Shown here one piece after another: positions 12,962 through 64,000 of a DNA stretch of 64,000 nt. The position numbers and the translations under genes were made by a program. This DNA comes from Sarea resinae. Its lineage: Eukaryota. The DNA lies in NCBI GenBank assembly GCA_026026165.1, contig JAPEUD010000011.1, forward strand, positions 434,001 to 498,000, read 5' to 3'. The notes under the pieces are model-generated. The model did no database searches. It was not told where the DNA came from and was given only the letters and a program-made list of their open reading frames with translations. Numbering within the stretch: the first letter of the stretch is position 1; each line of letters starts with the position of its first letter.

Positions 12962-12996
12962 GTGGACGGTGGACAGTGGACGGTGGACGGTGGACG
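12962..12996. repeat. 7-bp tandem repeat (GTGGACG/A) x5
   Basis: gtggacg gtggaca gtggacg gtggacg gtggacg read directly. Confidence 0.9.
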
Positions 12997-21077: not shown

Positions 21078-22246
21078 GACGGTAACCGTCCACGAATGTT
21101 CTCATCCGAAGAAGATATAGATCATGATGAGACGTCCGCTTCAGGATTTCAACCTTGTCGCTGTGAAGATTCGTGAGGCGTCAGAGAGATGTCGTACCCC
21201 TCCAAGGCGATGAGCTCGGAGAACGTGGCAAAGGGTCGTCAAGTACACATCGCATTGCCTCCTATGCCAAGTGATATCATAGGATAAGTGAAAGTCTTAG
21301 GAGATGAGGCGGCGGAGAGCAAAGTGATATGGCTCAGGTCAGTATGGTATGGTAGGAGTGGAGGTGCGTCGGTGTGATGCGGCTCCAGCTTGATGCTTGA
21401 GTATCGAAGTTCTTACTTTCCGTTACCTACCTACGGTAGGTATCAGACTCGATCCATGGCACTACACTAGCTACAAATGACGATCACTACAACACCACGC
21501 CTGAGGTGTGCCTACTTGGCAGAGGAGTAAGTTTGCAGTCTGGTAAGGCGCAGCAGAAGATGTGATCTGGATGGCATCTGCTGCCAGTGAAGCATGTCCA
21601 CTTGGCACACTGTCTGAACGTGAGCAGCGGACCTCTGTGATTGTTGAGCACCCGTGAGCGCCTGGGGCCTCTTGTTGCTATCAGAGTCATTCAGTCCTCG
21701 TGCACCAAGCTGTGTAAGGTACTTTAGACATGGTAACTGATGAAGTACTGTACACAGTACCACATGATATGATACGTATTACCTAAGGTAAGGCATCCGG
21801 CTCTCTTCCAGGTTGAGTGAGAGGATACCTTGCCGAGAGCTGCTGACCCGCAAGGTGGCAGCTGGAGTCTGAATACTACCGAGTACCTTAGGTACATGTA
21901 GGTAGGTACTGCCCATGGATTGTAGTACGAGGGGTACGGTCTGCGATAGGTCACGATAAGCTCGGGCTTAAAGCATGCGGGGTACGTATGGCAAGAGTAG
22001 ACGGCCGTAACTTACCTTACTTACTGCACTGGGCTCCAGCTCGTTGCTAGGCTCCAGCTACCTACCTTACATTACTCGGAGTACTCTCTTGAAGCCAGCA
22101 TCGGGTTTGTTGTTCGTGTCCGTCGGTAGTGGTTGTGGTCGACATCGTCATAATTAGGCCAGCTCTATTGCTTAGGGCAGGGCGAACTCAGCTCGGGGCT
22201 AAGATCATACAAGACCAGCAAAGTCCAAGCAGATACGCCTCTCCAG

Positions 22247-24114
22247 ATGCCCTCTTCGGCCGGGGACCAGGATTGGAGCGGTGATGATGGTGGGGACGAG
22301 GTGGCCCTGAACGAACTTCCAAGCATGGAAGATCCGTTCATTCAACGCTATCTGCAGGGTCGAGACGCGCTCATCTCCCAGGAATCGAAGCAACGAAGTG
22401 GTGCGTAAATCCTGCCTCGATTGACCGAGAATCAATATCTAACATCGCTTCAAAGACTATGCCTTTCGTCAATCATTATCGCCCATGGCAGCCGAAGCCA
22501 GCGCCATCGTGTCCAAGATTCGTGATGAAGAGCGCCGTACCATCTGGACCGAAGCCTTAGAGGCAGGCCTAAGCCAGAAGGGCGGGGAGATATATCCAGG
22601 TGCAATGTTTGCTTTGGCCAAAGAAAGGATGGAGAGCACTGTCTTGTGGAAGATCATTCAGAGAATGCCCAAGGGAGCTCTCCTACATGCGCACTTTGAA
22701 GCCATGGTCGATATCGGATGGCTTATTGATCAGGCATTTGCCACAAAAGGGATGCATATATATGCTCCTGCTGCCTTGTGTTCCCCTTCCAGTCTGGAGT
22801 CGGGCTCCGTGCTATTCAGATTTTCAACAACTACTCCACAACAGTCCTCAATGATCTGGTCCGATGATTATACGCCTTCTACCCTTATTCCCATGGATTC
22901 AGCCGCAGATAGCTTTCCGAATGGTGGCCGTTCGGGCTTTATGAGGTGGCTGAAAGATCGATGCACGATCACGGCTGGGGAATCGATTCAGCATCACCAT
23001 GGACCAAATGCCATATGGAGAAAGTTCCAATCTACATTCTTGATTCTCAATTCTATAATCCATTACGAGCCCATTCTTCGAGCCTTCACTCGCCGACTGT
23101 TTCAACAACTCGCTCTTGATGGGGTCCGATGGGTGGATCTCAGGGCTGTCTTTTTACACCCGTATTGGCGCGAGGGTTGCGACATCCCCGACCAAGGTTT
23201 TGAAGAAATGATTCGAGTTCTCAAAGATGAGCTTGTCAAATTCCAAGCAACAGAAGAGGGAAAATACTTTTGGGGTTGTCGAATGATATGGACTGTATTG
23301 CGAAGGTTGCAGACACGTGATATCATCAACAGCAAGTAACACAGGATCCTATACTGACCGCTTTTGACTGACGAACATGAAAGATATGGATCAGTGCATT
23401 GCAGTCAAAAAGGCCTTTCCTGACATGATAGCTGGCTTCGACTTTGTTGGACAAGAAGAAGCTGGGAGACCTCTCAAAGACCTTCTCCCCGAAATATTCT
23501 GGTTTCGCAAGCGTTGCGCAGAAGAAGGCGTAGAAATTCCCTTCTTTTTCCACGCAGGTGAATGCCTTGGTGATGGAGATGAGACAGATTACAATCTGGT
23601 CGATGCGATCGTTCTTGGTACACGTCGAATCGGACATGGTTTCTCTCTATATAAGCACCCTTTATTGATCGACATGATCAAAGACAAAAAAATATTGGTC
23701 GAGAGCTGCCCAATTTCTAACGAGATTCTAAGGTTCACGAGCTCTATCATGTCTCACCCACTTCCAGCGCTACTCTCTAGGGGTGTTCCAGTGGCTCTGT
23801 GCAATGATGATCCTGCTATCTTGGGACAGGAAGCTAGCGGGATGACGCATGATTTTTGGCAAGCTTTGCAAGGAATGGAACAACTAGGGCTTGAGGGCCT
23901 TGGAGCACTTGCCGAGAATAGCGTCAGGTGGGCGGCCTTTGAAGACCAAGCGGCTAAGGATTGGACAAAGGATATCAAAGACGGCACCTTTGGGGGTGGC
24001 ATCCGTGCTGCGCGAATGAAGGAGTGGCTCCGAGAATGGGAGAGCTTTTGCCAATGGGTGGTCATGGAGTTTGGCGTGGACGAGGATGGTGAAGAGGAAG
24101 AGGAAGAGGAGTGA
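22247..24114 (+). CDS. Adenosine deaminase of the ADA2/ADGF (CECR1-like) family; exons 22247-22400, 22456-23331, 23384-24114
   Basis: Metal and catalytic motifs MPKGALLHAH, AGFDFVGQEE, FFFHAGE, RRIGHG, ESCPISNE and NDDP. The first intron is GT-AG; the second fits only with a GC donor. Acidic C-terminal tail. Confidence 0.9.
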
Positions 24115-24728
24115 TAGAGCTTAACGGAGTCGATGATGCGGTTTGCAATTTATAGATCTGGATAATGGATACCCCATCTCCCGTCCAAGCTGCATTCCAG
24201 GATGTCTCAAAAGATCAAGCCAATTGTCGAATTTCTCACTTCAAGGTTCCATTTTACTATGTACACACTCGACCTGCACGGATCCGGCGCGCAGTAAAGG
24301 CAATTAGCCCTAGCCCCACAGGAAGGCAGGGTATCTTACTTTAGCAAGAGCAGCTCCTGTAGATGAGTTCGATAATATCCATGGTCAAGGACTGTACTCC
24401 GTAGAGTAGCGATCAAAGTAGGGCAAAGTGCCTACCAATTGGTTGGTCTCTACTACTAGTAAAGACTTCTACTCCGGAGTCGTACGAACATGTAAGATAA
24501 CTGGAGATTTGGATACCAGATCGGCAATCGTCCAAACCGCATGAGAGGCACCTACTCGTTCTGTCATGAGAGTCCGAGGGATTGATCGACGCCTGTACTT
24601 TGTACTGAAGTACTACTTCACTCTGGAATATCTCTGGAATATCTCCGGCAACCGACGCCACAATCGGGCTGCAACGACGAGGTGGCGCTAGTGCGACGAG
24701 AGGGCACTGTGTATTAATATTCGTAGAA

Positions 24729-24770
24729 GCTTCCAAGGCTTCCAAGGCTTCCAAGGCTTCCACGGCTTCG
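24729..24770. repeat. 9-bp tandem repeat (GCTTCCAAG) x~4.5
   Basis: gcttccaag x3, then gcttccacg and gcttcg, read directly. Confidence 0.9.
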
Positions 24771-25266
24771 ATCACGGCGCCTTTGAGGAAAGCCATCGAC
24801 GGTTACAACGGACGATGGCTGCACGCTACTGCGCCGTGCTACGAAGTCGAACGCGAGTCGAGTCCGGACACGGTTACTCTGTGCGGCCAGGTCTGCTGTC
24901 ATGCCAGTCACGCGGTCGATTCTAACCACAGTCGGTTACGGGAAAGGACCTGCCTCGACCTGGGAGAAGTACTCTGCGAGTACTCCGTAGTACGTTGCTG
25001 GCTCTCGACTCCTACGTAGTCGGCAGATCTCTTGCACGGTACGCCGGAGTACCTGCGACAGCATGACCCTGCCGTACCGTCCAGTCAGGCACGAGAAAAG
25101 CTCTTCCCACCAGGGGTCCAGCGCTGGCCTTATCGAAAATTTGCATGATCCTGTCCATCCTGTCCACACAGCGCGGGTCGATGCAGTCCGACCAGGGTCG
25201 AGTGATACGAACCCGAGGGCTGCATGCACGGCATCAAATCAATTGCTGCGTACCTAGGAGACTGCG

Positions 25267-25298
25267 AGATTGCAAGATTGCAAGATTGCAAGATTGCC
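25267..25298. repeat. 8-bp tandem repeat (AGATTGCA) x4 upstream of the CNT gene
   Basis: agattgca x3 plus agattgcc, read directly. Confidence 0.9.
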
Positions 25299-26042
25299 CA
25301 TGGGCCAGATAAAAGATAGACTCCCACTGATAATCAATCAACCCTCTTACTACTCGAGTGCGAGTACTCGTACTCGTACGTGTATTACGAGTCCGATCAG
25401 ACAAGAGAGTCCTTATCTCGCTGCTGCAGTCTCTCCACATCGGCCGTACGTACGCCGCACACCAGACCAGGCATGTGCCCAGCATAGGCCGGCAAGCCCA
25501 CCACGCGACCATGTTCTCTCTCGGGCCTAGGGCCCGTCAACTATCTCTCGCTCTCGCTCTCGTTCTCGCTCAGCTACGATGGTAGATCCCACTACTGCCC
25601 TACTCTTTGCTTGCATTCCGCCCTTTCTCATCGAGTCAGGCCAGGGTATCCGCATTATTACGACACGGCAATGAAGCTGAACCGCTTGCTGTTGCTGCTG
25701 TTCGGGTTTGGCCGGCCCTTGTGATACCAGAAACGCACCATCGAGCATGGTGCGTGTGTGGGGAGCCCAGCCGCCGTGGGTAGTCTGTAGGCTCAGTACT
25801 ATGGTAGGTCGTAGTCGCCGGCTTTTAAAACTTTCTTGCCCCTCCCAACCGCCAAGTTGTGGTGCAGCTGCCCTCCAACTGCCCTCCAAAGAGCTCCCTC
25901 CTCTCCTGGCCTCGATCTGCCATCGATCCAAGTCAGCCAGCATTCTTCCACCAGACCGGGCTGCCATTGACGTCCACCTGTGTGCCTTTTGGCTGCAGCA
26001 ATTGCCCGTCTGTGGAGCCCTCTGCGCGCCATTCCACCGGAG

Positions 26043-28432
26043 ATGGCTTCTTCGGAGATCAATGAGGTGACGGATTGGTCTGATCACAACGCTTCTGCCC
26101 AGCATGGCGTTGCGCCGAATCCAGATCCTGCCTTGAACATCTCGCGCGAACATCACCATCCTCATCTACATCACGATGCTTTCGCTGAGAAGGGCCGAGA
26201 AGATGAGGTGGTGTTCTCGAAAGGCACTTCGTTCGACAAGCCAACGATTCCGGACCAGAACCCGCATGGGCATGGACGAGCTCAATTGAACGAGTTAGAA
26301 GGTGCGAAAGGTGGCGTGGATGTGGCCGACGAGGAGAAGGGGAGCATCGGCCCCGTCGAAACCGAAGAGGAAGCCCTTCCTCAGGCGGGTTTCGGTATAG
26401 ACAGATTCTACCGAAGATATCGCGTCTTCGTCCATATATTCATCTGGCTCCTATTTACGGGGTAAGGCCTTTCATGTTTTTTGGCGGGTCCTTCAATTCC
26501 CTCCCACGGTCTATCTCCCCAGGCCAAGCAGCATTGCATTTTGAGGTTTCGTCTTACGACGAGCATCATATCAATGTGATAGGGTCATACCCTATGTCTG
26601 GATCTATCAGCCCCAGAGCTCTGCGATGCGCCCATGAGCATGGCCTTTCCCTTCTGTCTGCGCACGGGGCTTGTCGTCCCCTTCTCTGTCTCCGACTGCA
26701 AGGACTACGGTCACGGCTTGCTAACGTCGAGATAACAGATGGTGGATAGCAGGTCTCATCCTCCATCGATATGACATAGGTTGGATCAAGCCTTTCCTGT
26801 TATGGCTTGCCATAACACTGCGCCTTATCTTTTTCCACGCGCCAATCACCATCGTCACCATCCCCATGCACTTTGTGTGGAATCACACCGGCGTGCGCTT
26901 CGCGCAACTGATTCCAGACAAGCTCAAGATCCCTCTGGGGGCTCTCTTGACCGTTTCGGTCATTCTCATTGGGTCCTTCGTCAGCAAAGAAAGCCAAGAC
27001 AACACCCGTGCCAACCGCGCGGTCAGTCTGTTCGGTCTTGTCGTATTCCTTGCGGCTTTATACGCGACATCGAGGAACCGCAAAGCCATCAAATGGCACA
27101 CTGTAATCGTCGGGATGCTCACCCAATTCATCATTGCGCTGTTTGTCTTGCGGACCGGGACCGGCTATGACATCTTCAATTTCGTTTCCGGGCTGGCGAG
27201 GGATCTTCTGGGCTTTGCAGATCAGGGCACGTCCTTCTTGACCGATTCCTCGGTTCCCAAGACCGGATGGTTCCTGGTCTCTGTGCTTCCAGCCATCATC
27301 TTTTTCGTGGCTCTTGTGCAGTTGGTGAGTGCTCTGCTGCGGACTCGAGGCTCCAATATGTTCTAATAGATCCCCCTCTAGTTCTATTTCTGGGGTATTC
27401 TGCAATGGTTTATTGGAAAGTTTGCTGTCTTCTTCTTTTGGTCGATGCGAGTCTCTGGCGCCGAAGCTGTCGTCGCCGCCGCCTCTCCCTTCATTGGTCA
27501 AGGCGAATCAGCGATGCTCATCAAACCATTCGTCGCTCACCTCACGAACGCGGAGCTTCATCAGGTCATGACCTCGGGCTACGCGACCATTGCCGGTAGT
27601 GTTCTCGTCGCCTACATCAGCCTTGGCGTCAACCCTCAAGCGCTAGTATCCTCGTGCGTGATGAGCATTCCGGCCAGCTTAGCCATCAGCAAGCTGCGGT
27701 ATCCTGAGACAGAAGAGACCCTGACAGCCGGCCGAGTGGTCATCCCAGATGACGATCAGCACAAAGCCGCCAATTCGCTCCATGCCTTCGCCAACGGCGC
27801 CTGGCTCGGTCTGAAGATTGCAGGCATGATCATGGCGACCCTGCTCTGCATTCTGGGTCTGCTGGGGCTGGTCAACGGTCTACTGACCTGGTGGGGTCAC
27901 TATCTGAACATCAACGACCCGCCGCTGACGGTCGAGCTCATCGTCGGTTACATTTGCTATCCGATTGCTTTCCTCCTCGGTGTGCCGCGCAACGGCGATC
28001 TCGTCAAGGTCGGAAGGCTTATTGGGACGAAGCTGATTGCCGTAAGTATTGATTCCGCTAGTCGAGCCTTCTCCTGGAACGGAGGGAGGGACGAAATACA
28101 AGCAGTCGATGGAGAGAGATCGCTGACACAAGAGGCAATAGAACGAATTTGTCGCATACACGGATCTCCAGACGGACGCAATGTACAAGGATCTGTCACC
28201 GCGCTCTCGTCTGATCGCCACGTACGCGCTCTGCGGTTTCGCCAACATCGGCTCCCTCGGCACCCAGATCGGTGTCTTGTCGCAGCTGGCGCCGTCGAGG
28301 GGTGGGGACGTGGCGAGGTTAGCCATCAGCGCGCTGATAGCCGGAGCCATCTCCACGTTCACGAGTGCCAGTATTGCTGGCTTGCTGATCCAGAACCAAG
28401 CGGCATATTTCACGCCATCTTCGGCATCCTGA
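26043..28432 (+). CDS. Concentrative (H+/Na+) nucleoside transporter, SLC28/CNT family; exons 26043-26461, 26739-27324, 27382-28041, 28142-28432
   Basis: Motifs IKWHTVIVG, VLPAIIFF, SGAEAVVAAASPFIGQGES, MTSGYATIAGSVL, KLRYPE, GTKLIANEFVAY and YALCGFANIGSLG. The three GT-AG introns restore the frame. Confidence 0.93.
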
Positions 28433-49983: not shown

Positions 49984-51772
49984 TTGGCGTACTCCTTCTC
50001 TTACTAGGGACTCTTGGCGAGCTCCCGGCGCCTGGATCTTGGGGTAGAGTGAAATAAAATTTGTTTCCTGCTCGTAGGAAAGTGGTAACAGGACGGCGAT
50101 TAGACTTTGTGATCGTTGTAAGCAAAGCCTGAAAGGACATCGAGCGGGGAAGATGCTGGTATAAACAATACGTCCCGGCCGGCGGCAGATAAGGGCAGGT
50201 CGATAGCTAGGGACTTTTAAAAGTTGGTGACAGTTTTGACTCCTATCAACGACGGTTGAGGTCACTGAAGCGCCGGGCCCAGTACATATGTAACCTTGAC
50301 TGAGTAGACTCGACCTCAAACAACAACTCGAATGTCAAAGCACAATGAAAGCAAAACATAGGACAGCCACAAATGGACGCATCAGAAAGGCTCATGTCGA
50401 GAACAAATCAAAGGCTGAAAGAGAACGTTTCTGAAGACGCAGAAATGAATTTCTTAAAGAAACTAAACGAAATGCACCAGTCCTTAAAAGGTCTAATAAG
50501 ACGAAGGAAATATGCCTAGACAGTAGGTAGGTATAAAGTACTGTTGTAGTAGGTAAGGTATGTAGTAGTTAGGCGCTGATTATTATAGATAGGATAAGAT
50601 AGGGCTAGTAATGTTGGAATTTGCCGATCCACCCTGATCATGTGACTAGGCCGGAATAGGAAATCAGGGGTTATAACCTAGTTATTATACATTATAATTG
50701 TTATTTTCTCCTGAATTATGCAGCAGAATTACACGTTTAATTGCCTTATATCTAGCTATATAGATATAGTGTATTCTAGCAATTAGTAGAGTAGTAGAAT
50801 AAGTAGTTATATAGCTAATTATTTTAACAAGTAAGGTACTATATAGTATAGAGTATATATATAAAGTACTTTAATTATAGAGTAATTCTAGCTCTACTAG
50901 TAGGTTCTTATTTAAGTAAGGTATATAAAGTAGTTCTAAACCTAATCTAATCTAATTATCTAATTCTTCTTAAAGCAGTTATTAGATTGTTTGTATCCTT
51001 TTTACCTATAGCACTCTTTACCTCTATTATTACTCTAACCTATTAGAATGCTTTTACTAGCTTAGGTTTAAGCTTAGCTACTAACTTTAACCTTAACTAT
51101 AAGTCTTAGTCTCTTTAATATAAATAGAAGAATATAGATTTTTTATATCTACTAGAAGACTTACACTATAATAATAAGTAGTCTGTATTATATCTATTAT
51201 AAGACTACTTAAATGCATGCCTACTTTAGTAGTACTCTTTAGTAAGCTTATTATATATAAATTAAATAAAGAAGGTATTTATACTAAAAATCTTATTATA
51301 TACAGTATTATTATATATAGAACAAATTCCTATAATAGTATAAGTTATAGCTTAGAGAATACACTGTTGCTAATGTCTCTATACACACTGACTTATACAC
51401 TAAAAGCAATATATTTAAGTGCTAACATAAATTTTAGTTTTATAGAGTGTAAATAATAGTTATCCTTACTATATTGTTTAAGCTAAAGACTTAGTTTAAA
51501 ACAAAAGATACTAGACTTTACTTGTATTAAAATCACATGCACTAGCGCCTTTACTATTGCTTAAATTTTTAAGATACTTATGTATTTAGAAAGAGAAGTT
51601 TAAAAAAGATAGAATAAGTTAAAGCTCTAAAAAATTTACAGTCTATATAAGTAATACAGCTACAAACCTTCTTTAAGCAGCAATTCTTTAGTTAAGTAGC
51701 AGAGAAATTATAGCTATAAAGCTTAAGGTCCTAATAATAATTCTAGCTCTACTAACATTTAAAGCAGCTGCT

Positions 51773-52081
51773 TATAAAGGCTACTACTAATAGAGGTGCT
51801 ATATGCAGCTTAGTGTAGTGTAGAGTAACTACCTAGTGTAGTTTAGCAACGTTTAGGTAAGCTAAGCAAGGTTATTAGTTATATAGATTAATAGAGGCGC
51901 TAGCTATTAAGGCTAGTGTTTAATGCAATTATAAAGTTAGTGCCTACTAGCAATATCTATATCTATAGTATTAGTTCTGTATTGCTAGAGTGATACTAGC
52001 ACGCTATAGTGTATTAGCCTATTTAATTATACTATTCCTACTTACTCTACTATAGCTAGAAGTCTAGGAGGTAGTCTAACA
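51773..52081 (+). repeat. 5' LTR (309 bp)
   Basis: Aligns without gaps to 58881-59189; by my count 23 differences, all transitions. Confidence 0.95.
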
Positions 52082-52199
52082 ATTCTAAACGCTCTACTAA
52101 TATAGTAGTAGACTAGGTAAGATAGCGACAATAAATACATGTAATACTATAAAGGCTCTTAATACTCTACTAGGTGAAGGAGCTAATAGAGATAATAGT

Positions 52200-55100
52200 A
52201 AGACAATAGCAAGCTAGGTAGAAGGCAAGGTTAAAGAGCCTGTCTCTAACTAGATCACTAATTAATTACTAGACTAAATATAGTAAGAGTATAACGCTAA
52301 AGAGTAACAAGCTTAATATTATTAACTCTAGAGAGAGATAGCCTAGTTCTATATAGAACAGCAACTATAAGCACTTGCATAAGCATTGCAGCTAGGATAA
52401 GGCCTTGCAGCCGCTACGCTAGCACCTTGTATCACTAACTAGACTAAAATCTAAGCTCTAAAGCTATTTATAAGTAAGATAATTAAGGAGCATAATAAAT
52501 TTATCTAATTCTATAAGATAGCGTTCTAACTAAGAGCTATTACAAACAAAAGTAATAATGTAGCAAAGGTGCTATATGCTATACAGTACTTAAAAGACAA
52601 ACTAGCGCTAGTATAGCACTAGGTTAAAGAATCTACTAGGAAAGACACCTATACCTAGGATAAATTTGTCTTATTCTTACTAGACTAAGTAGAAGATCTA
52701 GTAAATTAGAGTGGTTTAATATTATAGCTATACTATAACGCTACACAGGTGCTGCACTAGAGTATTAATAGCTTTATAGCTTTCTTAGAACAGATTAAAC
52801 TAGAAGTGCTAGGAGAATAAGATATCTCTAAAGAGCAGCGATACAACTTGTTCTATACTAAGATCTAAAGTGAAATTTACTAGGAACTGCTTTAAACTCT
52901 ACCTATACTACAAAAGTAGAGCGCTGCTATAGCGTTAGCAAACTAGGTAGAAGAACTCCTCTATATAAGTAATAAAGAGAATAAGAATAAGAACTCTAAT
53001 CTATCTAAGCTAGATAATAAGCAACAGCATAGCAATAGTATAAAGAAAGGAAGAAGTTAGAATAAATAAAGAACTAAATAAAAGTTTAATCCTACTAAAC
53101 ACAAGGGTAAAAGCCTACCTCTATAAGAACAAAAAACTTCTGCTTAGCCTAAGAATAATAAAGGCAATAAGACTATATAGTAGCCTTAACAGCTCTCTAA
53201 TAAGGAGTATTACTACAGGTAAGAAAGTAACCTTTGCCTAAACTATAGCTAAAAGAGCTACTTTACTTCTACTTATAAGAATAAATATAATAATAGGCCT
53301 ATACTAGCTTTATAACTAGAGCTAGAACCCTACACTATTTGCTATCTTAGTGTAAGAGAATCTTAAGGAGCTCTAACTCTAAGATTAAAGATATCACTAA
53401 CTATTTACACCTCTAGTAGTATAGCAGATAGTATTACCTTAATTGATTTAAGAGTAGAAGCTTCTTTAGTTTTACAATTATAGATTAAAGAGCATAGGAT
53501 CTCTAAGGCTAAGCTTAGGCAGCTACCTAGTGTAGTAATAGTAAATAGCTTGCAAGTAGCAATCTATAGCTAACACTAATTAGAAATACAAGTTGCTAAT
53601 AGTAATAGTATAAGAAGGATAGTGTAGTGCTAGTTCTTTACCTACAACTTTAATAGTCCTTTATTCTTGCTTAGGTATCTATAGCTATCCTTATACTACT
53701 ATAATATATGTTAGTTAGAAGGTAAATTCAGCTATATTAAGCCTATAGATAAGCCTAGGCTTAGTAAGGAACATTAGAAGAAACGTTAGCTAAACTACTA
53801 AAGGATTATAGTAGTGCTTAAACCTATAGAGGTAGTAAAGCTTTGCTAGGTTAGCGCTAGTAATAAGATACCTAAATAGTATAAGGAATTTGCTTCTGTC
53901 TTTAGTAAAGAGAAAGCTAGCTAGCTTCCTAAGCATAGCCTAGCTAACTATACTATAGAGATAGAGAGTAAAGACTCTCTCTATAGACCTATATACCTAT
54001 TATCCTAAAAGAAATTAGGTGTCCTAAGAGGATACCTTAATAATAGCTTAGTAAAGAGGTAGATTACTCTCTTTATAAGCCCTATTAGTGCGCTAATCTT
54101 ATTTATACCTAAGAAAGATAGTAGCTTATAACTTTATATTAACTACTAGGCGTTAAATAAGGTCACTATTAAGAATTAATACGTATTACCCCTTATTTCT
54201 AAGCTTATAGACTAAATAAGCAGTGCTAAAGTTTTTTTTAAAACTAGACCTAAGAGATGCCTACTACTATATAAGGATCTGCAAAGGTAATAAGTATAAG
54301 ATAGCAATCTGCACTTGTTATAGCTAGTTTAAATATAAGGTTATGCTCTTTAGATTAGCTAATGCACCTGCTATATTTTAGAGCTATATTAATTATATAT
54401 TATAAGGCCTAGTTAATGTCTGCTGTGTTATCTATCTAGATAACATTCTTATATACTCTAATTCACCTAATAAGTATAAGAAGTATATACACTAGGTCCT
54501 TAAACAGCTAGCAACCTATAGCCTATATACAAAGCCTTTAAAATATGTCTTTAGAGTGTAAGAAGTTAATTTCTTAGGATTTGTTATTAGGACTAATAGT
54601 ATTGCAATAGAGAAGAGCTAGGTAGACACTATAAAAGAGTGGCTAGCCTTTAAGACCTATTATAACCTCTAAGTCTTCCTAGGATTCGCGAATTTCTACT
54701 AACAGTTTATAGAGAAATACTCTGTTAAAGCGCTGTTATTAACTAGCCTGCTTGCTAGGAATAAGAATAGAAAGAAAAGCAGTCTATTCTACTTCTCTAA
54801 AGAAGCTAAGGAAGTATTTAAAGCCCTAAAAGAAGCTTTTACAACAGCGCCTATACTGCGCTACTATAATCTAAAGAAGTAGATATAAGTAGAAACAAAC
54901 GCTTCTAGATTTGTTGTTGCAGCAATTTTATCCTAGCTAGTTAAGGATAAATAAGGTATTATAACAGCGTTAAAGTAGCACCTAGTTGCATACTAGTCTA
55001 GAAAGCTTACTAATACTAAATCGAGATATAAAGTGTATAACTTAGAATTACTAGCTATTGTAATAGCTTTTAAGCAATAGCGCTACTACTTAGAAGAGGC

Positions 55101-57460
55101 TAATTACTCTATTAAGGTCTTAACTAACTATGCAAATCTACACTACTTTATAATAACAAAGGAGTTAACCTATTGCTAGGCTAGATAGGCTAAACAGCTA
55201 GCAGCATATGATTTTAAACTTATATATAGAGTAGAGAAAGCTAATCTAGCTAACAGGCTGTTGCAGCGCCCTAATTACAAGGTAAAGATATAGAGTCTAG
55301 AAGTAATGCTTTCTACTTTGTAGCAGAAGCTGCAGAACCTATATATGTTAAAGAGAGATAGCACTACACTAGTAATTTAAAACCTTCTTACTAGAACAGA
55401 TAATAAGTATCTAGGCAAAATAGGCGCTAATACACTAAAGGATAATATGTATCTATAAGAGATTAAAAACCTCTCTAGGTTAGAGGATAACACTCTGCCT
55501 ACTATTAATAAGCAATAGCAACGCACTAGGATAACACCTAGTTTAAGTGTAAAGGATAATATACATCTATAAAGGATTAAAACCCTTTCTAAGTTATAGG
55601 ATAAAACCTAGCCTAATGTTAAAGAGCAATAAGGAGGCACTAAAGTGACACCTAGGCCTAGCCTAAATAATAATGCTAATAAGCTAGTATTAAGAGATAA
55701 GTTTAAACACCTCTATATAAGATAAGTAGTGTATAAGGCAGCTGCTAATAAAAGAGTGTATAAGCTGCTAACAAGCTAGCTGCTTAATATTATCCTTAGG
55801 ACTTAGTAGAAAGATTATTTTACTAAGGAAAAGATTAAAAGCATTTCTACTAAAGAGGTTACAGGCTAAGAAAAGTAGAAAATAGACTCTATAGGCCTGC
55901 TACACTTAGAAGGCAAAGTATATATACTATGTGATACAGCTATTAGGTTAGAAATTATAAGGATTAACTATAATAACTTGTTTAGTAGCTACTTTAGCGC
56001 TAAGAGAATAATAAAGGTAATCTAGTGTAAATACTAGTAGACTAATTTAGCTAAGGATATTAAAGAATATATTAATAAGTGCGATATATATTAAAGGGTC
56101 TAGGTGCCTAGGCATTGCCTATATAGCGAGCTATAGTCGTTACCTATACTCTACTAGCTGTTTAAAGAAATCACTATAGATTTTATAACAGGCTTACTAC
56201 TAAGTAATATAAGAGATTGCAAGGCCTATAATATAATAATAGTAGTAGTTAACTGCTATATAAAGATAGCGAAATATATTCTATGCTAGACAAATCTAAA
56301 TGCCACTATACTTGCAGATATATTTATTAACATTATAATAACAGTGTATAGCAATCTAAAGCGCATTGTATTAGATTAGAGCAGTGTATTTACAAGTAAG
56401 TTTTAGTTAGCAATATACTATTAAATGCGAATTAAGAACTAGCTTAGCACTACCTTCTACTTACAGATAGATAGCTAGACTAAGAGGTAAAACTAGACGT
56501 TAGAACACTACTTACAGTGCTATATAAGCAGCTGCTAGGATAACTAGGCCCTACTATTACCTATAGCTAAGTATGTATATAATAATAGCATACATTTATC
56601 TATAGGAATATCACTCTTCTATGCCTTATATAGCTATAACCTAGATCTGCAACTTAATATCGCAGATAATACTATAGAGAGAGAGGTGCTAGCAGTAAAT
56701 AAGCGCCTTAATATCCTCTAAGAGGTAAGATAAAGACTAGAAGAGAATCTTACTAAGGTATAGCAGTACTAAGCTAAGTAGTATAATAGGAAATATAAGC
56801 TAATACAATATAAAAAGAGCGATAGAGTTATGCTGTTAGTGTGTAACCTTAGCACTATACACCTAAGTAAGAAATTAGAACACTACTATATAGGCCTATT
56901 TATAGTACTTAACCTTATAGGTAAGTAAGCCTACTAGTTATAGCTCTCTAAGGCTTATAGATCTATCTATCTTATATTCTATATATCGCTACTTAAGTGC
57001 TACTATAGCGATAGCAATACCTTAGACTAGCACTTTAAGCTAGTTAATAGCTAGGTTAAGTAGATTATTAAGAAAATCCTAGGCTATAGAGTACTTAAAA
57101 GAGAGCGATAATATCTAGTTAAGTAGAAAGAAGCTCTAGTAGATAACACTAGCTAAGAGCTAGTAGAGCACTTAGCAAACGCTATAGACCTAGTATAGGA
57201 TTATAAATAGTACTTACTCTCTAACTAGTATAGAGGCCTAGTAAACAAGGAATAGAATGCTAGTATACTGTTAACTAAGCCTTATAGTCAACTAAGAAAG
57301 CAACTACTTAGTGATAGCGCTATAGAGGCAATAGCTAAGAGGCTAAGAGGCTACCTAAGAAAGAATCTACTACTCTATAAGGAACCTCTAGCTAGCCTAG
57401 AGATGCTAGTAATAAAACGCCTATAAGGAAGGCTATAGAAGTATAGCCTAAAGCTATAAG
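52200..57460 (+). pseudogene. RIP-destroyed gag-pol polyprotein (ends approximate)
   Basis: De-RIPed motifs: CCHC knuckle (~53235), protease LIDSGAE (53439), RT YLDDILIYS (54433), RNase H VETDAS (54889), integrase HHCC (55966-56095), ITMDF (~56170), GPF (~56892) and chromodomain W..EKILGHR...YLVKWK...SWEP..HL (57061-57175). Confidence 0.9.
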
Positions 57461-57829
57461 TAATTGTAGGAAAGAGACTTTATAGCTGTCTAAGAAAGGA
57501 CACGCTGTTACAGCACTAGTAAGGAGCTGCTATTAGAACTCTTTCTACTTTATTTACCTATAAAGGTTTTTAGGTGGTTTTAGTAAGCTAGCAAAGGGGT
57601 AGGCCTGTAATACTATAGCGTGCTAATAGTGTATAGTCTCTATAAAGGGCTATTAGGTAATAGAGCAATAAAGCTACACAGCTACAATGCTATAGTTATA
57701 AGAGGAGATAAAGTTATAGAAAAGAAAAGTGAAATTAACCTCTAGCGCTATCCTAGCGCATAACCCACGCGATCTAGTATACAAATAAAAATAAAAAGAC
57801 TACTATTCTATTATCTAACTACTTTGTCT

Positions 57830-58509
57830 TACCTAACTCTAAGAGCTCTAATTAGCCTAATTGCTAGTATTTTTCTAAAGCGTTATTATATTATTATTAT
57901 CTTTATTATCGCTCTTACTTGCGCGTGTAATAGATAGCAAATTAAACTAGATAACTAGGTTAGCGCTGTTATATCTCTAGCGTTCTACATGCAACTTACA
58001 ACGAACTAGAGAATATTATTAAGGCTTTTAACGCTATCTACAAGTTGTTCTATTGCTATAGCTATATAGAGAGCATTATTAGATAAGTGCTTATTAGCAG
58101 TGTTTATATAGGCTTTAACCTAGCAAGTGAATCGCCTCTATAAGTTGTAGAGCGTAGCAGCTAATAGCTCCTTAATAAGGTTGTTATTAGTGTAGCTAAC
58201 TACTATATTAGCTGCCTTAGTAAGCTAGTTTAGGCGCTTACAAAAGACTATTAGCACCTTTAGCACACTAGGTTAGAGTCTAGCTAGCACTATATAAGAG
58301 TCACCTACCTAACTACACTTCTTATACAACTAAGTATATTAAGTGCACTTTGTAGCTAATAAGGGCTTTATATAGACAATATCTAGTGTAGACCTAATAA
58401 CTTTAGCGCAGCAAAGGCAGACATTCTAATTTAGTCCTATAAGCTTTTAGAGAGCAGTAGCAGGCTAGTGCACATGTAGTAAAGAGGTGGTAAAGCGTCT
58501 AGCGTTTAT
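57830..58509 (-). pseudogene. RIP-mutated antisense three-exon gene inside the retrotransposon encoding a Zn2Cys6-like protein (ends approximate)
   Basis: The minus-strand frame reads C-L-C(R)-C-AKVIRSTLDIV-Y(C)-IKPLLATK-C-T*-Y(C)-T*LYKK-C. Introns GTAGGT..CTAAC..AAG (58308-58258) and GTAAGT..GCTAAC..TAG (57999-57947) keep the frame into a helical region and an acidic tail. Confidence 0.7.
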
Positions 58510-58880
58510 AATAGGTAGATAGAGCATATAGAATATACCTAAAAACATAGTGTAAAAAGTTTAATTATACACGCGCGCACTAGATCACCTATGTTTTATA
58601 CCTACACACCTATAGTTAAGCAACCTCTAAGTAATAGAGAGAATACCTAATGCAGATAGTTTAAAGCATTTACTCTATCTATTTACTACTACTACCTTAG
58701 CGCAGTGTTTAGCAAACTAAGCAAATAGGATAAAGAACTCTCTTTATTATCTATATAAATTCACTGTTTGCAGCGAATAGCAACGCTACTAAGGTGCTAG
58801 CAAGATAAAGACTTAACACTATAATGTTATACATTGTAAATAAAGGACCTAGAGGACTAGGTCTTAAGAGAGAAGGTAAT

Positions 58881-59189
58881 TATAAGGGCTACTACTAATA
58901 GAGGTGCTATATACAGCTTAGCGCAGCGTAGAGTAACTACCTAGTGTAGTTTAGTAACGTTTAGGTAAGCTAAGCAGAGTTATTAGTTATATAGATTAAT
59001 AGAGGCGCTAGCTATTAGAGCTAGCGTTTAGTGCAATTATAAAGTTAGTGCCTACTAGCAATATCTATATCTATAGTATTAGTTCTGCATTGCTAGAGTG
59101 ATACTAGTATGCTGCAGTGCACTAGCCTATTTAATTGTGCTATTCCTACCTACTCTACTATAGCTAGAAGTCTAGGAGGCAGTCTAACA
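58881..59189 (+). repeat. 3' LTR (309 bp)
   Basis: Direct repeat of 51773-52081, preceded by a polypurine tract and followed by the TSD CTGCT. Confidence 0.95.
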
Positions 59190-62100
59190 CTGCTATAGAT
59201 ATTACTTTATTAACCTAAGTTAAGATAGGCTTAAGGCAAGTGATTTATATATTAAGTAAGCTTTATATGTTTAGCGTTCTATTAAAGATTGCAGTTATTA
59301 CTAGAGTCATACTCTATAAGTAGGTGTTAATAAGAAGAGGTTTAGTTATCTTATCTAAAGCCTTACTATAGCTTATAATAAGAGATAAATTATAGTCTTT
59401 ACCTATTATAGAATAACAACTCTTTTTAGTAAGTAGAGAAGCTACTAATAGACTAGTTAATCCTAAGATTATAAGTTCTTATTAGGAAGATTAATTAGCT
59501 TTAGTATAGAGAGAGACTTACCTCTTACTAGAATATTCCTCTAGCTACTATCCTATGCTACACTATAGGAAAATAGAGGCGCTTAGTTAATACTCTACTC
59601 TAAGGTAATGCAAAACAATAAAGAATTTACTGTCTGATTTTACTAGATCTTCTAGCTCTCTATTATTACTTATAATATAAGGTTATACAAGTAGGCTAAG
59701 AAAAGAATGTCTAAACAGACTCTATTACTTGTGTTATTAGATGTCTTTAAGAAGAATAATTTTAAAGTTATACTCTTAAAAATAAGGCTGTAAGTGTAGA
59801 CTAAGGTTAAATTTTATAGGTAGACTAATAGCAGGACACTAAGAAGATAATTTCTATTACAGACAACTAATAAATTATTAGAATTATTAGGAGATAATAA
59901 TAACGCTACTATCTAAGTAATAGGTAGTAAGAGAGATATCTTAGAGGTAGAGAGGTTAGCAACTCCTAAGGTAGTAGAAGTAAAGTTAGTAATAGAGTAT
60001 AATAATATACTAACTGAATTTAAACTAGTATTAATCCTATCTATCCTAATAAGTTAAGCTATTACTAGAGTTAAAGAGTAGAGAAAGAGAGCAGATAGAA
60101 TGTAAAGCGTTAATATAATTAAAGGTTGTTAGTATTAATAAATTTATGTTTAAAATAGAGGATCTAAAAGGAGATGCTTGCGATTTAAAGTAGAATGCAA
60201 GAATATAAACACCTTTTAAATAAAAAAAGAGGGTTATAATGTGTATAGAATTGTAGCTACTTTCTAGACAGGTTACTATTAACCTTATTATTGTATGTAG
60301 TAATACAAGTAATATTAAAGCATAAGTATAAATAGGTGTAGGAACTCTTATATAGAAGAGTATAAATTTAACATTTATAGGCTGCATTTAGAGGCTACAT
60401 TTAGGTGTTAGTGCAGGTGGCTAATAAGGACTGTAATAGGATTGTTAGGTGTCTAAGTAAACAACTAAAGGTCTAAAGGCTAAACTATATATTGTCTTTT
60501 AAGCGCAGTGTCTCTTAGTACTCTTATAACTTTAATGCCTATATAAAGTTTAAGAAATACTCTAAAGCACTTATACTACTTAAAGGAACTCACTACCTCT
60601 TTGCTTTAATACTAGGTGCAAAGTATAGTTGTAAAATTATATTCTATCTATAATTGTTCTTTATTACACGCTATATCTCTTAGTGCCCTTATAACTTTCT
60701 TTCTTGCAAATACCTGTATAAAGTACACTTGCTATTATATGTGTCCTTATATAACTTAACTATTTCTAAAGGCACTATCTTTCTAAGACTATAGCTATAA
60801 ATTTAATAATTGCATATTATTCTCTATTAAGCGCTATATCTGTTACTGCCTTTATAAGTTCTTAGCAATGCATTTATAGTTATTGTTTTACACGCCTTAA
60901 TACATAACTTAGCTTATCTTTAAAGGCGCTATCTTTTTAAGTAAACAATTGCAAATTTTAATCCTAAGCCTTTAGTTTTCTTAAGTAGAGTGTCTACTTA
61001 GGTACTTACTAGGTAGGTAGAGGTAGAAGAACCTGCCTAGGTATAGGTATTAAGTACCTATACCCTAATTAACCTGCCTAATAAGACCTAGTAGGTAGGT
61101 ATAGGTACTTGTTATATAATATAAAGATAGTAGCTAAAATAGCATAGATTGTAAGGCATGTTTTATAGAGCATTAAAAAGCCGCTATTACTCTATAAATA
61201 TTACCTATATATATTACTAAGTCTATTAAGTCTTTATTATAGACTAAGTAAAGTAAAGACTAAAGATACTAAAAGGCAAAGAAAAACTATAAGCCTCTTA
61301 TAACTTCCTATAACCTGTGACTAGAAGACTAGAAAAGCTATAATTGTATCTCTAACTGCATCTCTAATTGCATCTCTAATTGCGCTACTAGGACTAGTAA
61401 AACCTTAGAGCTAATGCTATAGAAACTTAACCTATATATCACTAGAGATCTAGATACTAAAGCCCTTTATTAAAGCCTTAATAAACTAAGTGTCTTTATA
61501 ATTAATAGTTATACAGTTCTAATAAATGCAGGCCTAAAGCACATCTAGAAAAATTAAGTATAAGATAGAAGAAGAGATTCTCACTTTTAAAGAACCTAAC
61601 TATAAAAGCCTTAGTAGCTTCTTACAAGGTATATATAGCTAATAACTAAAAACAGAGCTCTCTAGAGAGGTAGTAGTAATAAGATATAACCTTACAGACT
61701 AGGCGCTAGAAAGAGAGCTTTAGAATAACTAAATTAATAGATTTTTACAATCTCTTAATTTTATAGAGTGCAGATGCTATAGTGTTTAAATGTTACTATA
61801 ATATGTTACCTTTAGAGTTTAGAGACTAAGACTTACTGCCTAGACAAGTGTAATAGAGTTAGATTAGTTTAGATACACTATAAACCTTACTATAACTATA
61901 AAAGGCAGTATCCTTATAAACCTATGCTTTTATAGTATCTTTATAGGCCTTTTAGCGTTTAGTATATATACTAGTGTAAGGGATCAAACTAGATCGCACT
62001 AGATAAGTGCTAGACAGTTCTAAAGATATAGGAACCGCTAAATTATAATAGCGCTGCTATACTTAATAGTTGTTAAGTGTGTTACTATCTTAGGCCTTAC

Positions 62101-64000
62101 TACTAATATATCTTAAAGAACTTAAATAGGTAGCAGAATAAGTGTATCAATTAATATAAGCTATTAGCCTATAGCCTAGTAACTAAGTAATAAGAAGAAG
62201 AGAAGAAAACTAACGCGCTAACTGCTTGCTTAACTAAATGCTAGAAAAACTAATAACTCTTTAGAATGTATAAAGAACTAATAAATACTCTCTTTCTAAA
62301 CCCCTAAGGAACATAACTCTACTACTAATACCTAATAACTAAGCTGTTACTAGTTTACCCTATTATATCTATCCTCTCTATAAGAGGAAGTTAGCCTATA
62401 ACTTCTAAAAAGAAAAAGAAGATATTTAACTAAAAGAGAGTGTAGATAGGCATACTATTATTATAGGTTCTCTCTGCGTTTCTTAGTTAAGTAGTAAAGA
62501 GATAGATCTATTGCTTACTTATATAATTATAGTAGTTCACCTATTATAAGATTGTTAGAATCCTCTCTAAAGGGATTTAGCTGCAGTAAGGTTTAATTGC
62601 AAGCAGATTGTTATAGCTAGGCTGCTAAATAGTGCGATCTATTGTTAGAACTTAACTCTTAGTAGTAGCTCTCTCCTTTAGGAGTAGCTATTTCTGTTAG
62701 CGCTAGCAGATCTTCTATGCTAGGTGCAGGTAGTTCTCTTATGCTTAGAGCAAAGGACTTAGAATAAACAATTGCTAATAGAGCTATAGAGGTATATTGT
62801 TTCTTTAGTTAGTAAGGTAGAAACAGGCCTTTAGCTTTACACTTATTAGGCTAGAGAGTGCTAGTCAGGCTAGAAGATATTAGGCTAATTATGCTAAGCC
62901 TAAGCTCTAGAATAGTTTGCCTAACTTTAGCCTCTAGTAATAACTTAATATCTAGTTAAGTAGGAAATTTTTATCTAGCTAGGCTAGAAGATATCTTAAA
63001 GAGATTGTTATTATTGTTGTCCTTAAAGAGCTATAGATTGCTGTTATTGTCTTCTACTAACACATTATACTCCTTTAAATACTAATAGGACTTTTCTCTA
63101 TATAATTACTGCTTAGCTCTCTTAAACACTGCAAATACTACCTTATATTTTATAATTGCTTAATATCTCTACTTAGCTATAAAGAGCTTAGTAGTATCTG
63201 TATCTAGTCTAAAGAGAATCGCTTGCTGTTCTATAACCTCTAGATTATTATAGCAACGTTGCCTAACAAGTGCATCTAAAATAGCACTAAGCTCTATAAA
63301 AGAGACTACTACACTAAATTTGCTTAGAACTTAGCTGTGTATATTTAGGTGTCTTAACAGGCTATTTAGTAGAGGAACAAGGTTATAATATAACACTAAG
63401 AGCTGATCCTAGGTGCCTAAGCCTAATATTTCTAGCGTCTAATAGTCCTTTTTAATTGCTACTTTCTAAGAGTAGATAACATTGTACTTAGAGGTTAGTT
63501 TCTTTATCGCATTATAGATAATCTAAGGATCACTAAATCTAAGCCTAAGTTTAGGCATAGGATAGAGTGTCTTAGTGATTCTAAAATTATCTTTGTCCTT
63601 TACTATCAGCTAATTTCTATCTATCTAAGTAACATAACTATTATGTTTATAGAGCTTTAAATTACGCTCTTTTACCTCTACAGCCTAGTCACTAAAGATC
63701 TTATACTATCTAAGATATATATAGATACAGTTGTTATTATCCTTATAACTAAATGCAACTGCGCTTTGCACTATATTAATGCTAGTACTATCCTCTGCTA
63801 TTTTACAGATATTTTAGTCTAAATAGTAAAACCTTGTTTTATCCTCTAGTAATAACAACTTAGTATAGTAAGGGTAAGATATTAGGCGTTTCTTTTAGTT
63901 AGGCTAGAAGTAAATAGTTAACAAGTAGTGAAATAGATCTTAATTTAGTAGCTATTAGATAATAAAGTAGAATATAATACACACCTAGCCTAGATTTTTG

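Follow-up and report, generated by a model that had tools for sequence, protein, structure and literature searches.

Antisense genes situated between pol and the 3' LTR of LTR retrotransposons are already known, in fungi from the brtn gene of Boty and in plants from several elements. In the accessible parts of PMC8365987 and PMC7264820, which cite Zhao et al. 2011, Boty-like elements are described as carrying the antisense gene brtn, a case overlooked by the sequence-only reading of the present locus, which held that chromoviruses lack such genes. Compared by description, Boty resembles the element reported here, each being a fungal Gypsy element with a chromodomain that has, in the stretch from pol to the 3' LTR, an extra gene on the opposite strand. 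The plant genes, termed aORF-3R, include gene23 of Grande, RIRE2, ORF4 of Retand and ORF2 of PvRetro13, according to the accessible part of a review of antisense ORFs (PMC7264820). They share with the present gene its position, its orientation and its conservation among family members, and the same part of that review reports for Grande an own promoter and a nuclear protein. Their hosts, in contrast, are plants, and the accessible part of PMC11963269 assigns them to non-chromovirus lineages such as Retand. No similarity between them and the present protein was found, our phmmer scan having returned one member only of the present family, and in that family the introns are conserved. As to position, the gene described here (58509-57875, minus strand) lies, like an aORF-3R, between a chromodomain relic and a 3' LTR, within one target-site duplication (TSD). 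Our literature search on antisense aORFs in fungal Gypsy elements found plant studies only, and a search for work joining Zn2Cys6 proteins with antisense genes of LTR retrotransposons, with subscription journals mostly outside its range, found none.

HBZ of HTLV-1, a spliced bZIP regulator, offers a more distant analogy, in that the present gene may likewise encode a regulator-like protein on the minus strand, near the 3' end of an element that replicates by reverse transcription. The antisense promoter of HBZ is placed in the 3' LTR by the accessible part of PMC7264820. The two proteins differ in that they have no sequence or fold relation and belong to other hosts. A third comparison is with the Gal4-type Zn2Cys6 factors. 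The present protein has the same CxxC...C...CxxC...C order of cysteines, a canonical second half (C-x2-C-x6-C) and a comparable succession of module, helices and acidic tail. Unlike these factors, however, it is much smaller (about 200 aa), has no fungal-specific middle homology domain and is borne by a transposon.

The window, that is, the whole 64,000-nucleotide stretch of Sarea resinae DNA that was analysed, contains a single, complete Ty3/Gypsy chromovirus insertion at 51773-59189, wrecked by RIP-type C>T/G>A mutation. The 5' and 3' LTRs, of 309 bp each (51773-52081 and 58881-59189, plus strand), were delimited as a repeat pair and by alignment, the 5' LTR beginning with TA (from TG) and ending with CA. 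Over 328 aligned columns of the LTR regions there are 31 mismatches, 24 of them transitions. The TSD, CTGCT, can be read directly on either side (51768-51772 and 59190-59194). Between the LTRs, on the plus strand, Pfam recognises a reverse transcriptase relic with many stops (54226-54588; RVT_1, E=4.5e-14 on a read-through with stops as X, at residues 718-838 in the frame that begins with 52075), an RNase H relic (54796-55209; RT_RNaseH_2, 2.3e-20, and RT_RNaseH, 1e-17) and an integrase relic extending from Integrase_H2C2 to SH3_Tf2-1 (55936-57003; E=4.6e-4, under the curated cut-off, and 1.4e-9). Pol ends in what is probably a chromodomain relic (57073-57207, plus strand), which aligns to residues 1210-1258 of the pol relative P0003. 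Pfam has no match on this mutated stretch of the window copy, and it does find Chromo (E=5.8e-14) in P0003, over the part aligned to 57073-57207. A polypurine tract, AAGAGAGAAGG, is read directly at 58866-58876 (plus strand), 4 nt ahead of the 3' LTR, and its position suggests that it may have served as primer site. Reverse transcriptase, RNase H and integrase in this order, together with the LTRs and the TSD, are in keeping with a Ty3/Gypsy chromovirus, and a single TSD and a single LTR pair bracket the whole of it, antisense gene included. The sequence-only reading had correctly placed the antisense gene inside one LTR element, after pol and ahead of the 3' LTR; the gap that it put at about 1.4 kb is actually about 1.6 kb, the chromodomain ending near 57207 and the LTR starting at 58881.

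The relic found in this gap on the minus strand is that of a three-exon gene (58509-57875). Exon 1 (58309-58509) starts with ATA, derived from ATG, and contains the relic of a six-cysteine module (58315-58419). In the frame with a codon at 58419-58417 the minus-strand text of the module can be read directly as C-L-C-C-x11-Y-x8-C-x2-Y-x6-C, with four Cys codons intact and two changed to TAT, just as had been claimed. Intron 1 (58258-58308, 51 nt) opens with GTAGGT from 58308, 6 nt past the last Cys codon, has CTAAC at 58277-58273 and closes with AAG, the AG lying at 58259-58258. It is followed by exon 2 (58000-58257), relic of a helical segment, by intron 2 (57947-57999, 53 nt; GTAAGT from 57999, CTAAC at 57963-57959, AG at 57948-57947) and by exon 3 (57875-57946), relic of an acidic tail, which closes at TAG, codon 177. 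Both introns are in phase 0, as the sequence-only reading had it; its description of them as frame-preserving is true of the 51-nt intron only, the 53-nt intron shifting the genomic frame. With ATG changed to ATA, 10 internal stops and two Cys turned into Tyr, the window copy is broken, and the antisense gene in it is a dead relic. Pfam found no family in seven stop-as-X read-throughs from both strands of 57200-58870, and canonical Zn2Cys6 motifs are absent from the six frames of the window.

An intact relative exists among public proteins. P0001, of 194 aa, is entered at NCBI as 'MAG: hypothetical protein' of Sarea resinae and treated as an ordinary gene in the annotation of its 139.5-kb contig. 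When a stop-as-X read-through of 58000-58548 was compared by phmmer with 1.84e9 representative proteins, P0001 was the sole real match (E=6.7e-33); P0002 (3829 aa, E=8e-4), a protein of repetitive sequence whose match covers about 60 residues, was set aside as a composition artefact. The pattern of cysteines, with [C/Y] at each place and the spacing unchanged, has a single instance among the six frames of 50501-64000, and this, taken with so close a relative, argues that the antisense pattern is not due to chance. The spliced window model aligns without gaps to residues 1-177 of P0001 (exon 1 to residues 1-67, exon 2, also by BLASTP, to 68-153, exon 3 to 154-177), P0001 extending 17 residues beyond the TAG. 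BLASTP leaves a 17-residue gap exactly at intron 1, and intron 2 has to be removed for the alignment to be gapless, so that introns of 51 and 53 nt at the places first proposed are upheld. The 177 positions comprise 91 identities, 80 RIP-compatible differences and 6 differences of another kind. A RIP-ruined copy is thus still decodable, since 171 of its 177 codons match P0001 or differ by C>T/G>A only. P0001 has C-x2-C-x11-C-x8-C-x2-C-x6-C, all six cysteines that had been expected of the un-mutated form, and an acidic tail; the tail had been read as ESDDEDDDD, which holds letter for letter, and the helical middle segment is likewise borne out. Among the 120 pol matches listed, none is named as a Sarea pol protein numbered beside P0001. 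Pattern searches for relatives of P0001 confirmed none of 593 matches in metagenome contigs and none of 61 in viral contigs.

Homologues were found in related chromoviruses, which are contigs from metagenomes collected by searching with P0003. The Cys motif or a tblastn homologue stands opposite the pol strand in 9 of 51 such loci. Where at least 1200 nt of downstream sequence is present (20 loci), the homologue lies antisense downstream of pol in six. The layout of the window copy recurs in L001, L005, L006, L008, L010 and L011; in L007 and L018 the homologue is upstream of the pol match. The gene is absent from the other 14 of the 20, all with a pol at most 43% identical to P0003, and is therefore not needed by chromoviruses in general. 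Gene models of six loci consist of phase-0 exons only, and five of them give complete open spliced frames of 196-220 aa, the sixth (L001) being cut at the contig end. Introns measure 45-87 nt, with donors of the form GT[AG][AG]G[TC]. In all six loci the donor is 6 nt past the sixth Cys codon and exon 2 begins with [IV]-P; relatives also have an intron at the place of intron 2. The six cysteines are invariant in the seven sequences of the alignment, and the first loop is x10 in L006 and L018 and x11 otherwise. That the gene is inside the repeat unit is seen in L005, which consists of 2 x 7515 nt, and in L011, whose ends overlap by 171 nt. In L005, pol stops 220 nt ahead of the antisense gene, and no long sense ORF was found over the gene. 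Rfam gave just two matches on 5600-7600 of L005, with E about 0.9.

Open frames, invariant cysteines and substitution ratios all indicate conservation of the coding sequence among related elements, under purifying selection. The four closest elements give dN/dS of 0.19-0.26 in five of six pairs, the sixth being saturated; values below 1 among un-RIPed homologues had been suggested as a check, and the ratios are rough because dS is near saturation. For pN the range is 0.27-0.36 versus a pS of 0.63-0.75. The antisense protein changes at about three times the pace of pol (dN 0.33-0.48 versus 0.06-0.15), amino-acid identity being 51-56% for the former and 78-90% for the latter. Across a greater distance, pol of L001 is 48-51% identical to that of the L005 group, yet the intron position is common to both.

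The question arises as to what kind of protein is encoded. Its layout comprises a basic stretch, the Cys module, helices and the acidic tail. The Zn2Cys6 consensus is C-x2-C-x6-C-x5-12-C-x2-C-x6-8-C, from which the family spacing, C-x2-C-x10/11-C-x8-C-x2-C-x6-C, departs in a first loop of 10-11 residues versus 6, the other spacings fitting. Membership of the Zn2Cys6 family, as proposed by the sequence-only reading, found no support at the sequence level: none of seven members (P0001 and six exon-1 translations) matches Pfam Zn_clus (PF00172) at E<=10, and PDB chains gave no sequence or profile match at the same threshold. Only neighbours among predicted structures point towards Zn2Cys6 domains. 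AF2, run with 16 sequences, predicts one short helix per CxxC (32-40 and 56-61; pLDDT of the module 52-70) and three helices over residues 70-154 (pLDDT 72-85); a run on P0001 alone reached a pLDDT of 56 and was not used. Two residues adjoining the CxxC pairs, K36 and R57, show conservation. Residues 24-70 have as their closest neighbours in the ESM Atlas of predicted structures mostly zinc-cluster proteins, 7 of 10 rows being Zn(2)-C6 or Zn_clus-bearing clusters, with TM by query of 0.59-0.74 over 37-44 residues, a length at which TM>0.5 means little. Foldseek had no match in the PDB at E<=0.001, and the best VIA-align score against 48161 chains was a Z of 10.1, all matches falling on residues 67-157 and on generic three-helix bundles, a range uninformative for helical models; both searches were dominated by the helical part and barely probed the Cys module. 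A homodimer prediction for residues 26-158, made without alignment, scored 0.02 against a mark of 0.32. On the predicted models, we lean slightly towards a Zn2Cys6-like fold for the six-Cys module.

Taken together, the observation behind the sequence-only reading is confirmed and its interpretation is partly supported. Anatomy and function considered jointly, the locus is very probably an element-borne, spliced accessory gene with some protein-level function. Retrotransposition would leave its introns in place, since the genomic sense RNA contains them as reverse complements, which cannot be spliced, and we infer that the gene is transcribed from integrated DNA by a promoter of its own. This promoter would be found ahead of the ATG, in the direction of the 3' LTR or within it, and the transcript would then be spliced. 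In L005-type relatives the ATG is about 50-100 nt (by eye) from a purine-rich tract, so that the promoter may sit in the LTR. The six cysteines would hold zinc in a Zn2Cys6-like two-helix module. We tentatively propose that the product is a nuclear, nucleic-acid- or chromatin-binding regulator of the element's expression or silencing, in the manner of a retroviral accessory gene. A narrower version, which we regard as unlikely, is that a clade of ascomycete chromoviruses encodes a divergent Gal4-like zinc-cluster regulator that binds the LTR or host chromatin, and thereby activates the element or resists silencing.

The same anatomy could serve a protein other than a transcription factor, namely a small zinc module acting as an adaptor in the life cycle of the element, for instance in nuclear import of the pre-integration complex, in targeting of chromatin or integration sites together with the chromodomain, or in countering a silencing factor of the host. 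Contact would then be made by the helical part, with its fast evolution. The pace of the protein relative to pol is one often seen in host-interaction factors, no sequence method ties it to Zn_clus, and its helical part resembles generic three-helix bundles only. The accessible part of the antisense-ORF review likewise mentions a nuclear GENE23 in Grande and a DNA-binding SMC domain in ORF2 of PvRetro13, and sees no clear database similarity for any of the antisense-ORF proteins (PMC7264820). However, the basic/Cys/helical/acidic layout and the Zn2Cys6 neighbours among predicted structures fit a small activator at least as well, and we consider the adaptor possible, if on the doubtful side.

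Alternatively, the gene may belong to the known brtn family of Boty-like elements, from Botrytis and Sclerotinia, in which case only the host is new. Position, antisense orientation, an ascomycete host and a gag-pol of the type with a chromodomain agree with this (PMC4227169, accessible part), and BRTN proteins are deposited in GenBank (PMC5987419, accessible part). A profile search of 5.8e9 clusters, including NCBI nr, nevertheless returned 17 matches of which P0001 alone was named with an organism and none was named Botrytis, Sclerotinia or BRTN, a weak negative. The restriction of the phmmer result to P0001 is also a weak negative, the query having been a mutated copy. Identity with brtn seems somewhat improbable.

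It could also be that the conserved entity is an antisense RNA, regulating by way of double-stranded RNA, and that the reading frame is incidental. Antisense transcripts have been proposed as regulators of retrotransposons (PMC7264820, accessible part), and conservation is higher in the non-coding blocks beside the gene than within it. However, pN is well under pS for all pairings of the four closest elements, exons are in phase and open where intron lengths range freely from 45 to 87 nt, and the six cysteines are invariant across very different sequences, all of which makes this explanation very unlikely.

Other copies in the sequenced DNA bear on the origin of the segment. In the one DNA run that contains this stretch, depth is about 15000-17000 in the flanks and drops to some 2800-3300 between 57816 and 58592, a figure that is a sum over contigs, not a copy number, and hence a hint only that most family copies there are without the segment or less than 80% like it. 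One contig of the same run has 705 unlike letters, a similar length, in place of 57907-58580. The depth and the annotation of P0001 as an ordinary gene would suit a recent capture of a host gene (a transcription-factor gene in the sequence-only reading) or a nested insertion private to the family or copy, but this origin is extremely unlikely, since the element in its entirety lies within a single TSD and LTR pair, the gene and its intron position are common to elements whose pol is only about half identical (48-51%), intact homologues sit at this place and on this strand in related chromoviruses, and the 705-letter replacement looks more like a divergent version than like an absence.

The reading that we retain, a spliced accessory gene of the element acting through its protein, is of interest in that accessory genes are what distinguishes complex retroviruses from simple retrotransposons. 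According to the accessible part of PMC7264820, no antisense ORF of LTR retrotransposons has a known function yet. The present family provides a testable handle in this respect: a small protein whose six-Cys module is invariant and which has an acidic tail, kept with its introns across half-identical elements. Deposits of such genes as 'hypothetical proteins' of fungal genomes (P0001) or truncated ORFs also mean that genes of transposons may have entered counts of genes and censuses of transcription factors. If the product is a regulator, fungal retrotransposons would control their own transcription or silencing. If, moreover, the zinc-cluster clade were real, it would be a fungal retrotransposon counterpart of the retroviral accessory regulators, and the very large Zn2Cys6 transcription-factor repertoire of fungi could have been seeded by these elements or have lent to them.

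We found that the G+C content of the window falls from 42-57% to 27-38% at about 50.5 kb and stays low to the window end. Stops interrupt all frames of this AT-rich block, in which the longest uninterrupted stretch is 113 aa, and the block has the look of repeat DNA mutated by RIP (C>T/G>A). Within it, a direct repeat pair forms two 309-bp LTRs (51773-52081 and 58881-59189), whose mismatches are mostly transitions (24 of 31, over 328 aligned columns). The LTR ends are TA...CA, the 5' dinucleotide being one RIP step away from TG; five identical bases, CTGCT, flank the pair on either side, and a purine tract, AAGAGAGAAGG, ends 4 nt ahead of the 3' LTR. Pfam, applied to one plus-strand frame with stops read as X, finds RVT_1 (E=4.5e-14), RT_RNaseH_2 (E=2.3e-20), Integrase_H2C2 (E=4.6e-4, below the curated cut-off) and SH3_Tf2-1 (E=1.4e-9), in that order. 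No chromodomain is matched by Pfam in the window copy; the segment 57073-57207 aligns with a part of P0003, the closest intact pol relative, that Pfam calls Chromo (E=5.8e-14). Given the LTR pair, the flanking CTGCT, the domain order and this alignment, the element is one complete, dead Ty3/Gypsy insertion of chromovirus type, 7417 bp long, in which about 1.6 kb separate the end of pol from the 3' LTR.

Two side features of the region were seen. Between the RNase H and integrase parts of pol, 114 nt are duplicated in tandem (55436-55663, 74% alike), which repeats peptide-like text within the pol frame. Moreover, AT-rich, stop-riddled DNA extends beyond the element on both sides (50500-51767 and 59195-64000), with three 45-nt repeats, spaced at about 164 nt, in the 3' flanking block (60488-60860); these flanks are probably further degraded repeats.

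The sequence-only reading had placed an intron-containing, Zn2Cys6-like gene antisense between pol and the 3' LTR, and this observation is confirmed. Read directly, the minus strand at 58509-57875 has four intact Cys codons and two TAT codons, as listed there; a GTAGGT donor lies 6 nt past the last Cys codon, both intron-like intervals (51 nt and 53 nt) contain CTAAC and a terminal AG, the helical text is present, and the frame reached past the second interval holds an N/K/D-rich tail. The [C/Y] pattern at this spacing occurs only once in the six frames of the 13.5-kb AT-rich block, and the gene is single-copy within the window by tblastn. A search of 1.84 billion representative proteins with the minus-strand read-through of 58000-58548 (X at stops) gave two matches. 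One, a 3829-aa repetitive protein (E=8e-4), was rejected; the other, P0001 (E=6.7e-33), is an intact relative of 194 aa, the sole member of its cluster, whose source name is 'MAG: hypothetical protein M1819_005976 [Sarea resinae]'. BLASTP against P0001 leaves one 17-residue gap, precisely at the 51-nt interval, and the three proposed exons, joined by coordinates, make 177 codons that align without gap to P0001 residues 1-177 (91 identical, 80 explicable by C>T or G>A alone, 6 otherwise different). P0001 has the motif C-L-R-C-x11-C-x8-C-x2-C-x6-C and includes LQRRFTRQVE and SLNDILRF, and its structured part closes with ESDDEDDDD, so that the de-mutated peptides guessed from the window were essentially right. 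The window copy itself is a relic: ATA stands in for the start codon, ten stops interrupt the frame, and Tyr has replaced two of the six Cys.

That the segment is a separate nested insertion private to this copy is unlikely, given its distribution among related elements. With P0001 as query, no relatives were found among metagenome and viral contigs; among 51 metagenome loci fetched as encoding relatives of P0003, a homologue of the antisense protein is present in nine, each time on the strand opposite pol. Beyond the pol match, 1200 nt or more of downstream sequence are available in twenty of these loci: six carry the homologue (L001, L005, L006, L008, L010 and L011), with a pol 47-77% identical to P0003, and 14 are without it, with a pol at most 43% identical in all cases. 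In two loci, L007 and L018, the homologue is instead upstream of pol, and these may be permuted contigs. L005 contains its own sequence twice (2 x 7515 nt), and the contig ends of L011 overlap by 171 nt; since such repeats are the assembler product expected from a multi-copy LTR element, the antisense gene belongs within the element's repeating unit.

At these six loci, gene models derived from coordinates and generic splice signals have phase-0 exons only, and the spliced frame is complete and open in five. The L006 model encodes 196 aa in three exons, as in P0001, and those of L005, L008, L010 and L011 encode 213, 220, 210 and 215 aa, respectively, in four; the L001 model, on the same three-exon plan as L006 and P0001, is cut at the contig end. 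Introns are 45-87 nt long, mostly not multiples of three. In all six loci, a consensus donor lies exactly 6 nt past the sixth Cys codon, as in the window, and exon 2 opens with [IV]-P, as in P0001; the last intron comes after LRFA-, LRFQ-, LRWA- or YMAV-type ends of a similar helix. The L005 pol stop lies 220 nt ahead of the antisense gene, over which there is no long sense frame.

P0123, another relative of the antisense protein (179 aa, contig of 1356 nt, 38% identical to P0001), is open across the intron 1 position and enters apparent intron 2 sequence; either its lineage has lost intron 1 or the record represents a transcript that was spliced only in part. In L001 (6077-7105, minus strand) the last exon is open for 342 codons, and the acidic stretch is followed by a long basic, Pro/Ser-rich tail (RGRGKSRGKGRGGR..., KKKRK), which P0001 and L006 do not have.

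Antisense proteins of the four closest elements share 51-56% identity, with pN of 0.27-0.36 against pS of 0.63-0.75 and dN/dS of 0.19-0.26 in five pairs, the sixth being saturated; pol of the same elements is 78-90% identical, with dN/dS of about 0.10. By these values, purifying selection acts on the antisense gene, whose rate of evolution is about three times that of pol. At silent sites, too, the same pairs are more divergent in the antisense gene than in pol (for example, L010-L011 dS 1.58 versus 0.58), possibly through recombination between elements. A profile of exon 1 retrieved 16 further unnamed proteins without Pfam domains, most of them bacterial-style ORF calls that extend past exon 1 into the intron. 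Across the 16 aligned rows, C34, C55, R57, C58 and C65 are invariant and C31, L32, K36, P42 and C46 nearly so, apart from one truncated row and rows in which Tyr replaces Cys and which seem to have undergone RIP too. As a separate observation, the relatedness order of the elements differs between antisense gene and pol.

Contigs of the one DNA run that contains this stretch were placed on 51600-59350 at a likeness of at least 80%, and their depths summed per bin, a measure distinct from copy number: about 12000-27000 over the element body, about 42000 over the 3' LTR, 6700, 2800, 3100 and 3300 in four bins of 57557-58592, and 15000 again at 58593-58851. The drop, about five-fold, coincides exactly with the antisense gene and its 3' side, both flanks being high. 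Contigs matching the window exactly have a depth of about 420. There is a hint that most family copies in that genome are without the gene segment, or less than 80% like the window there. One contig links 57701-57906 to 58581-58792 via 705 unlike letters instead of 674 (57907-58580), which tentatively favours a divergent version of the gene rather than a deletion. A divergent version would fit the fast evolution found among relatives.

The protein resembles a Zn2Cys6 cluster in its Cys order, its second half, C-x2-C-x6-C, and its predicted helices, but the first loop is lengthened, as had been claimed, to 10-11 residues from the usual 6. P0001 has no relevant Pfam match, none of seven family members matches Zn_clus at E<=10, and neither P0001 nor the profile matches any PDB chain at E<=10. 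An AF2 model from 16 sequences (mean pLDDT 67) has short helices at 32-40 and 56-61, each starting at a CxxC, with low pLDDT (52-70), then three long helices within 70-154 (pLDDT 72-85) and a disordered acidic tail. Fold searches of the PDB matched generic helical bundles only, to residues 67-157, the Cys module lying outside. A single positive lead came from the ESM Atlas: for residues 24-70 of the Atlas's own model, seven of the ten nearest rows were fungal transcription-factor clusters with Zn(2)-C6 or Zn_clus, and in three rows the aligned part was the Zn_clus domain itself; over all ten rows TM by query was 0.59-0.74 over 37-44 residues, values that mean little for short stretches. Two rows are unnamed ascomycete clusters and may be members of the antisense-protein family. 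Our reading is of a putative zinc module resembling Zn2Cys6, rather than one that demonstrably belongs to PF00172.

With the gene's location, strand and exon structure established, along with its conservation and its constraint as coding sequence, how might it work? An intron antisense to the genomic RNA is not removable from that RNA and is thus copied back into DNA, a principle that underlies antisense-intron retrotransposition reporters. The introns of the antisense gene would be unspliceable in the genomic RNA and hence returned to DNA; because they would be retained in this way, the gene would be transcribed off the integrated copy, by its own promoter. In the window family, 371 nt lie between start codon and LTR. 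By eye, about 50-100 nt separate the ATG from a conserved purine-rich tract, possibly a PPT, in L005-type relatives (L005:6697-7100 and the same region of L008, L010 and L011), and an invariant block reading TATTTAA on the gene strand lies about 145 nt upstream of the ATG, which suggests that their antisense promoter may reach into, or overlap, the LTR edge.

On the other side of the gene, between the pol stop and the antisense-gene stop, some blocks are identical in all four elements (L005:5680-5925, L008:3740-3980, L010:3545-3795 and L011:6020-6272), one of which, about 33 nt long, contains an inverted pair, GTGG...CCAC. Their conservation exceeds that of the antisense coding sequence (mean column identity 78%), and they may act in cis as an RNA or DNA signal; Rfam found nothing in this region.

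In proteins of the P0001, L006 and L001 type, a basic stretch is followed by the Cys module, in which Lys and Arg are conserved, then by helices and an acidic tail; a small nuclear activator has such a layout. We tentatively consider the protein a putative DNA- or chromatin-binding regulator of the element. Alternatively, the putative module might stabilise, through zinc, an adaptor for some other stage of the life cycle, which we hold to be somewhat less likely. Of the earlier interpretation, the spliced antisense gene carried by the element stands, and its regulatory function is a proposal.

A class of antisense ORFs located between pol and the 3' LTR has been described (Grande gene23, RIRE2, Retand, PvRetro13, and brtn of the fungal Boty element), and BRTN proteins are deposited in GenBank, according to PMC5987419. 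Compared by description only, brtn likewise lies antisense between pol and the 3' LTR. No BRTN-named match appeared in the read-through search of 1.84 billion representatives or in the exon 1 profile search, and in the literature searched we found no paper combining Zn2Cys6, LTR retrotransposon and antisense. The gene would be new within a known class, or already known if brtn proves homologous. This family makes the old question of the function of antisense retrotransposon genes directly testable.
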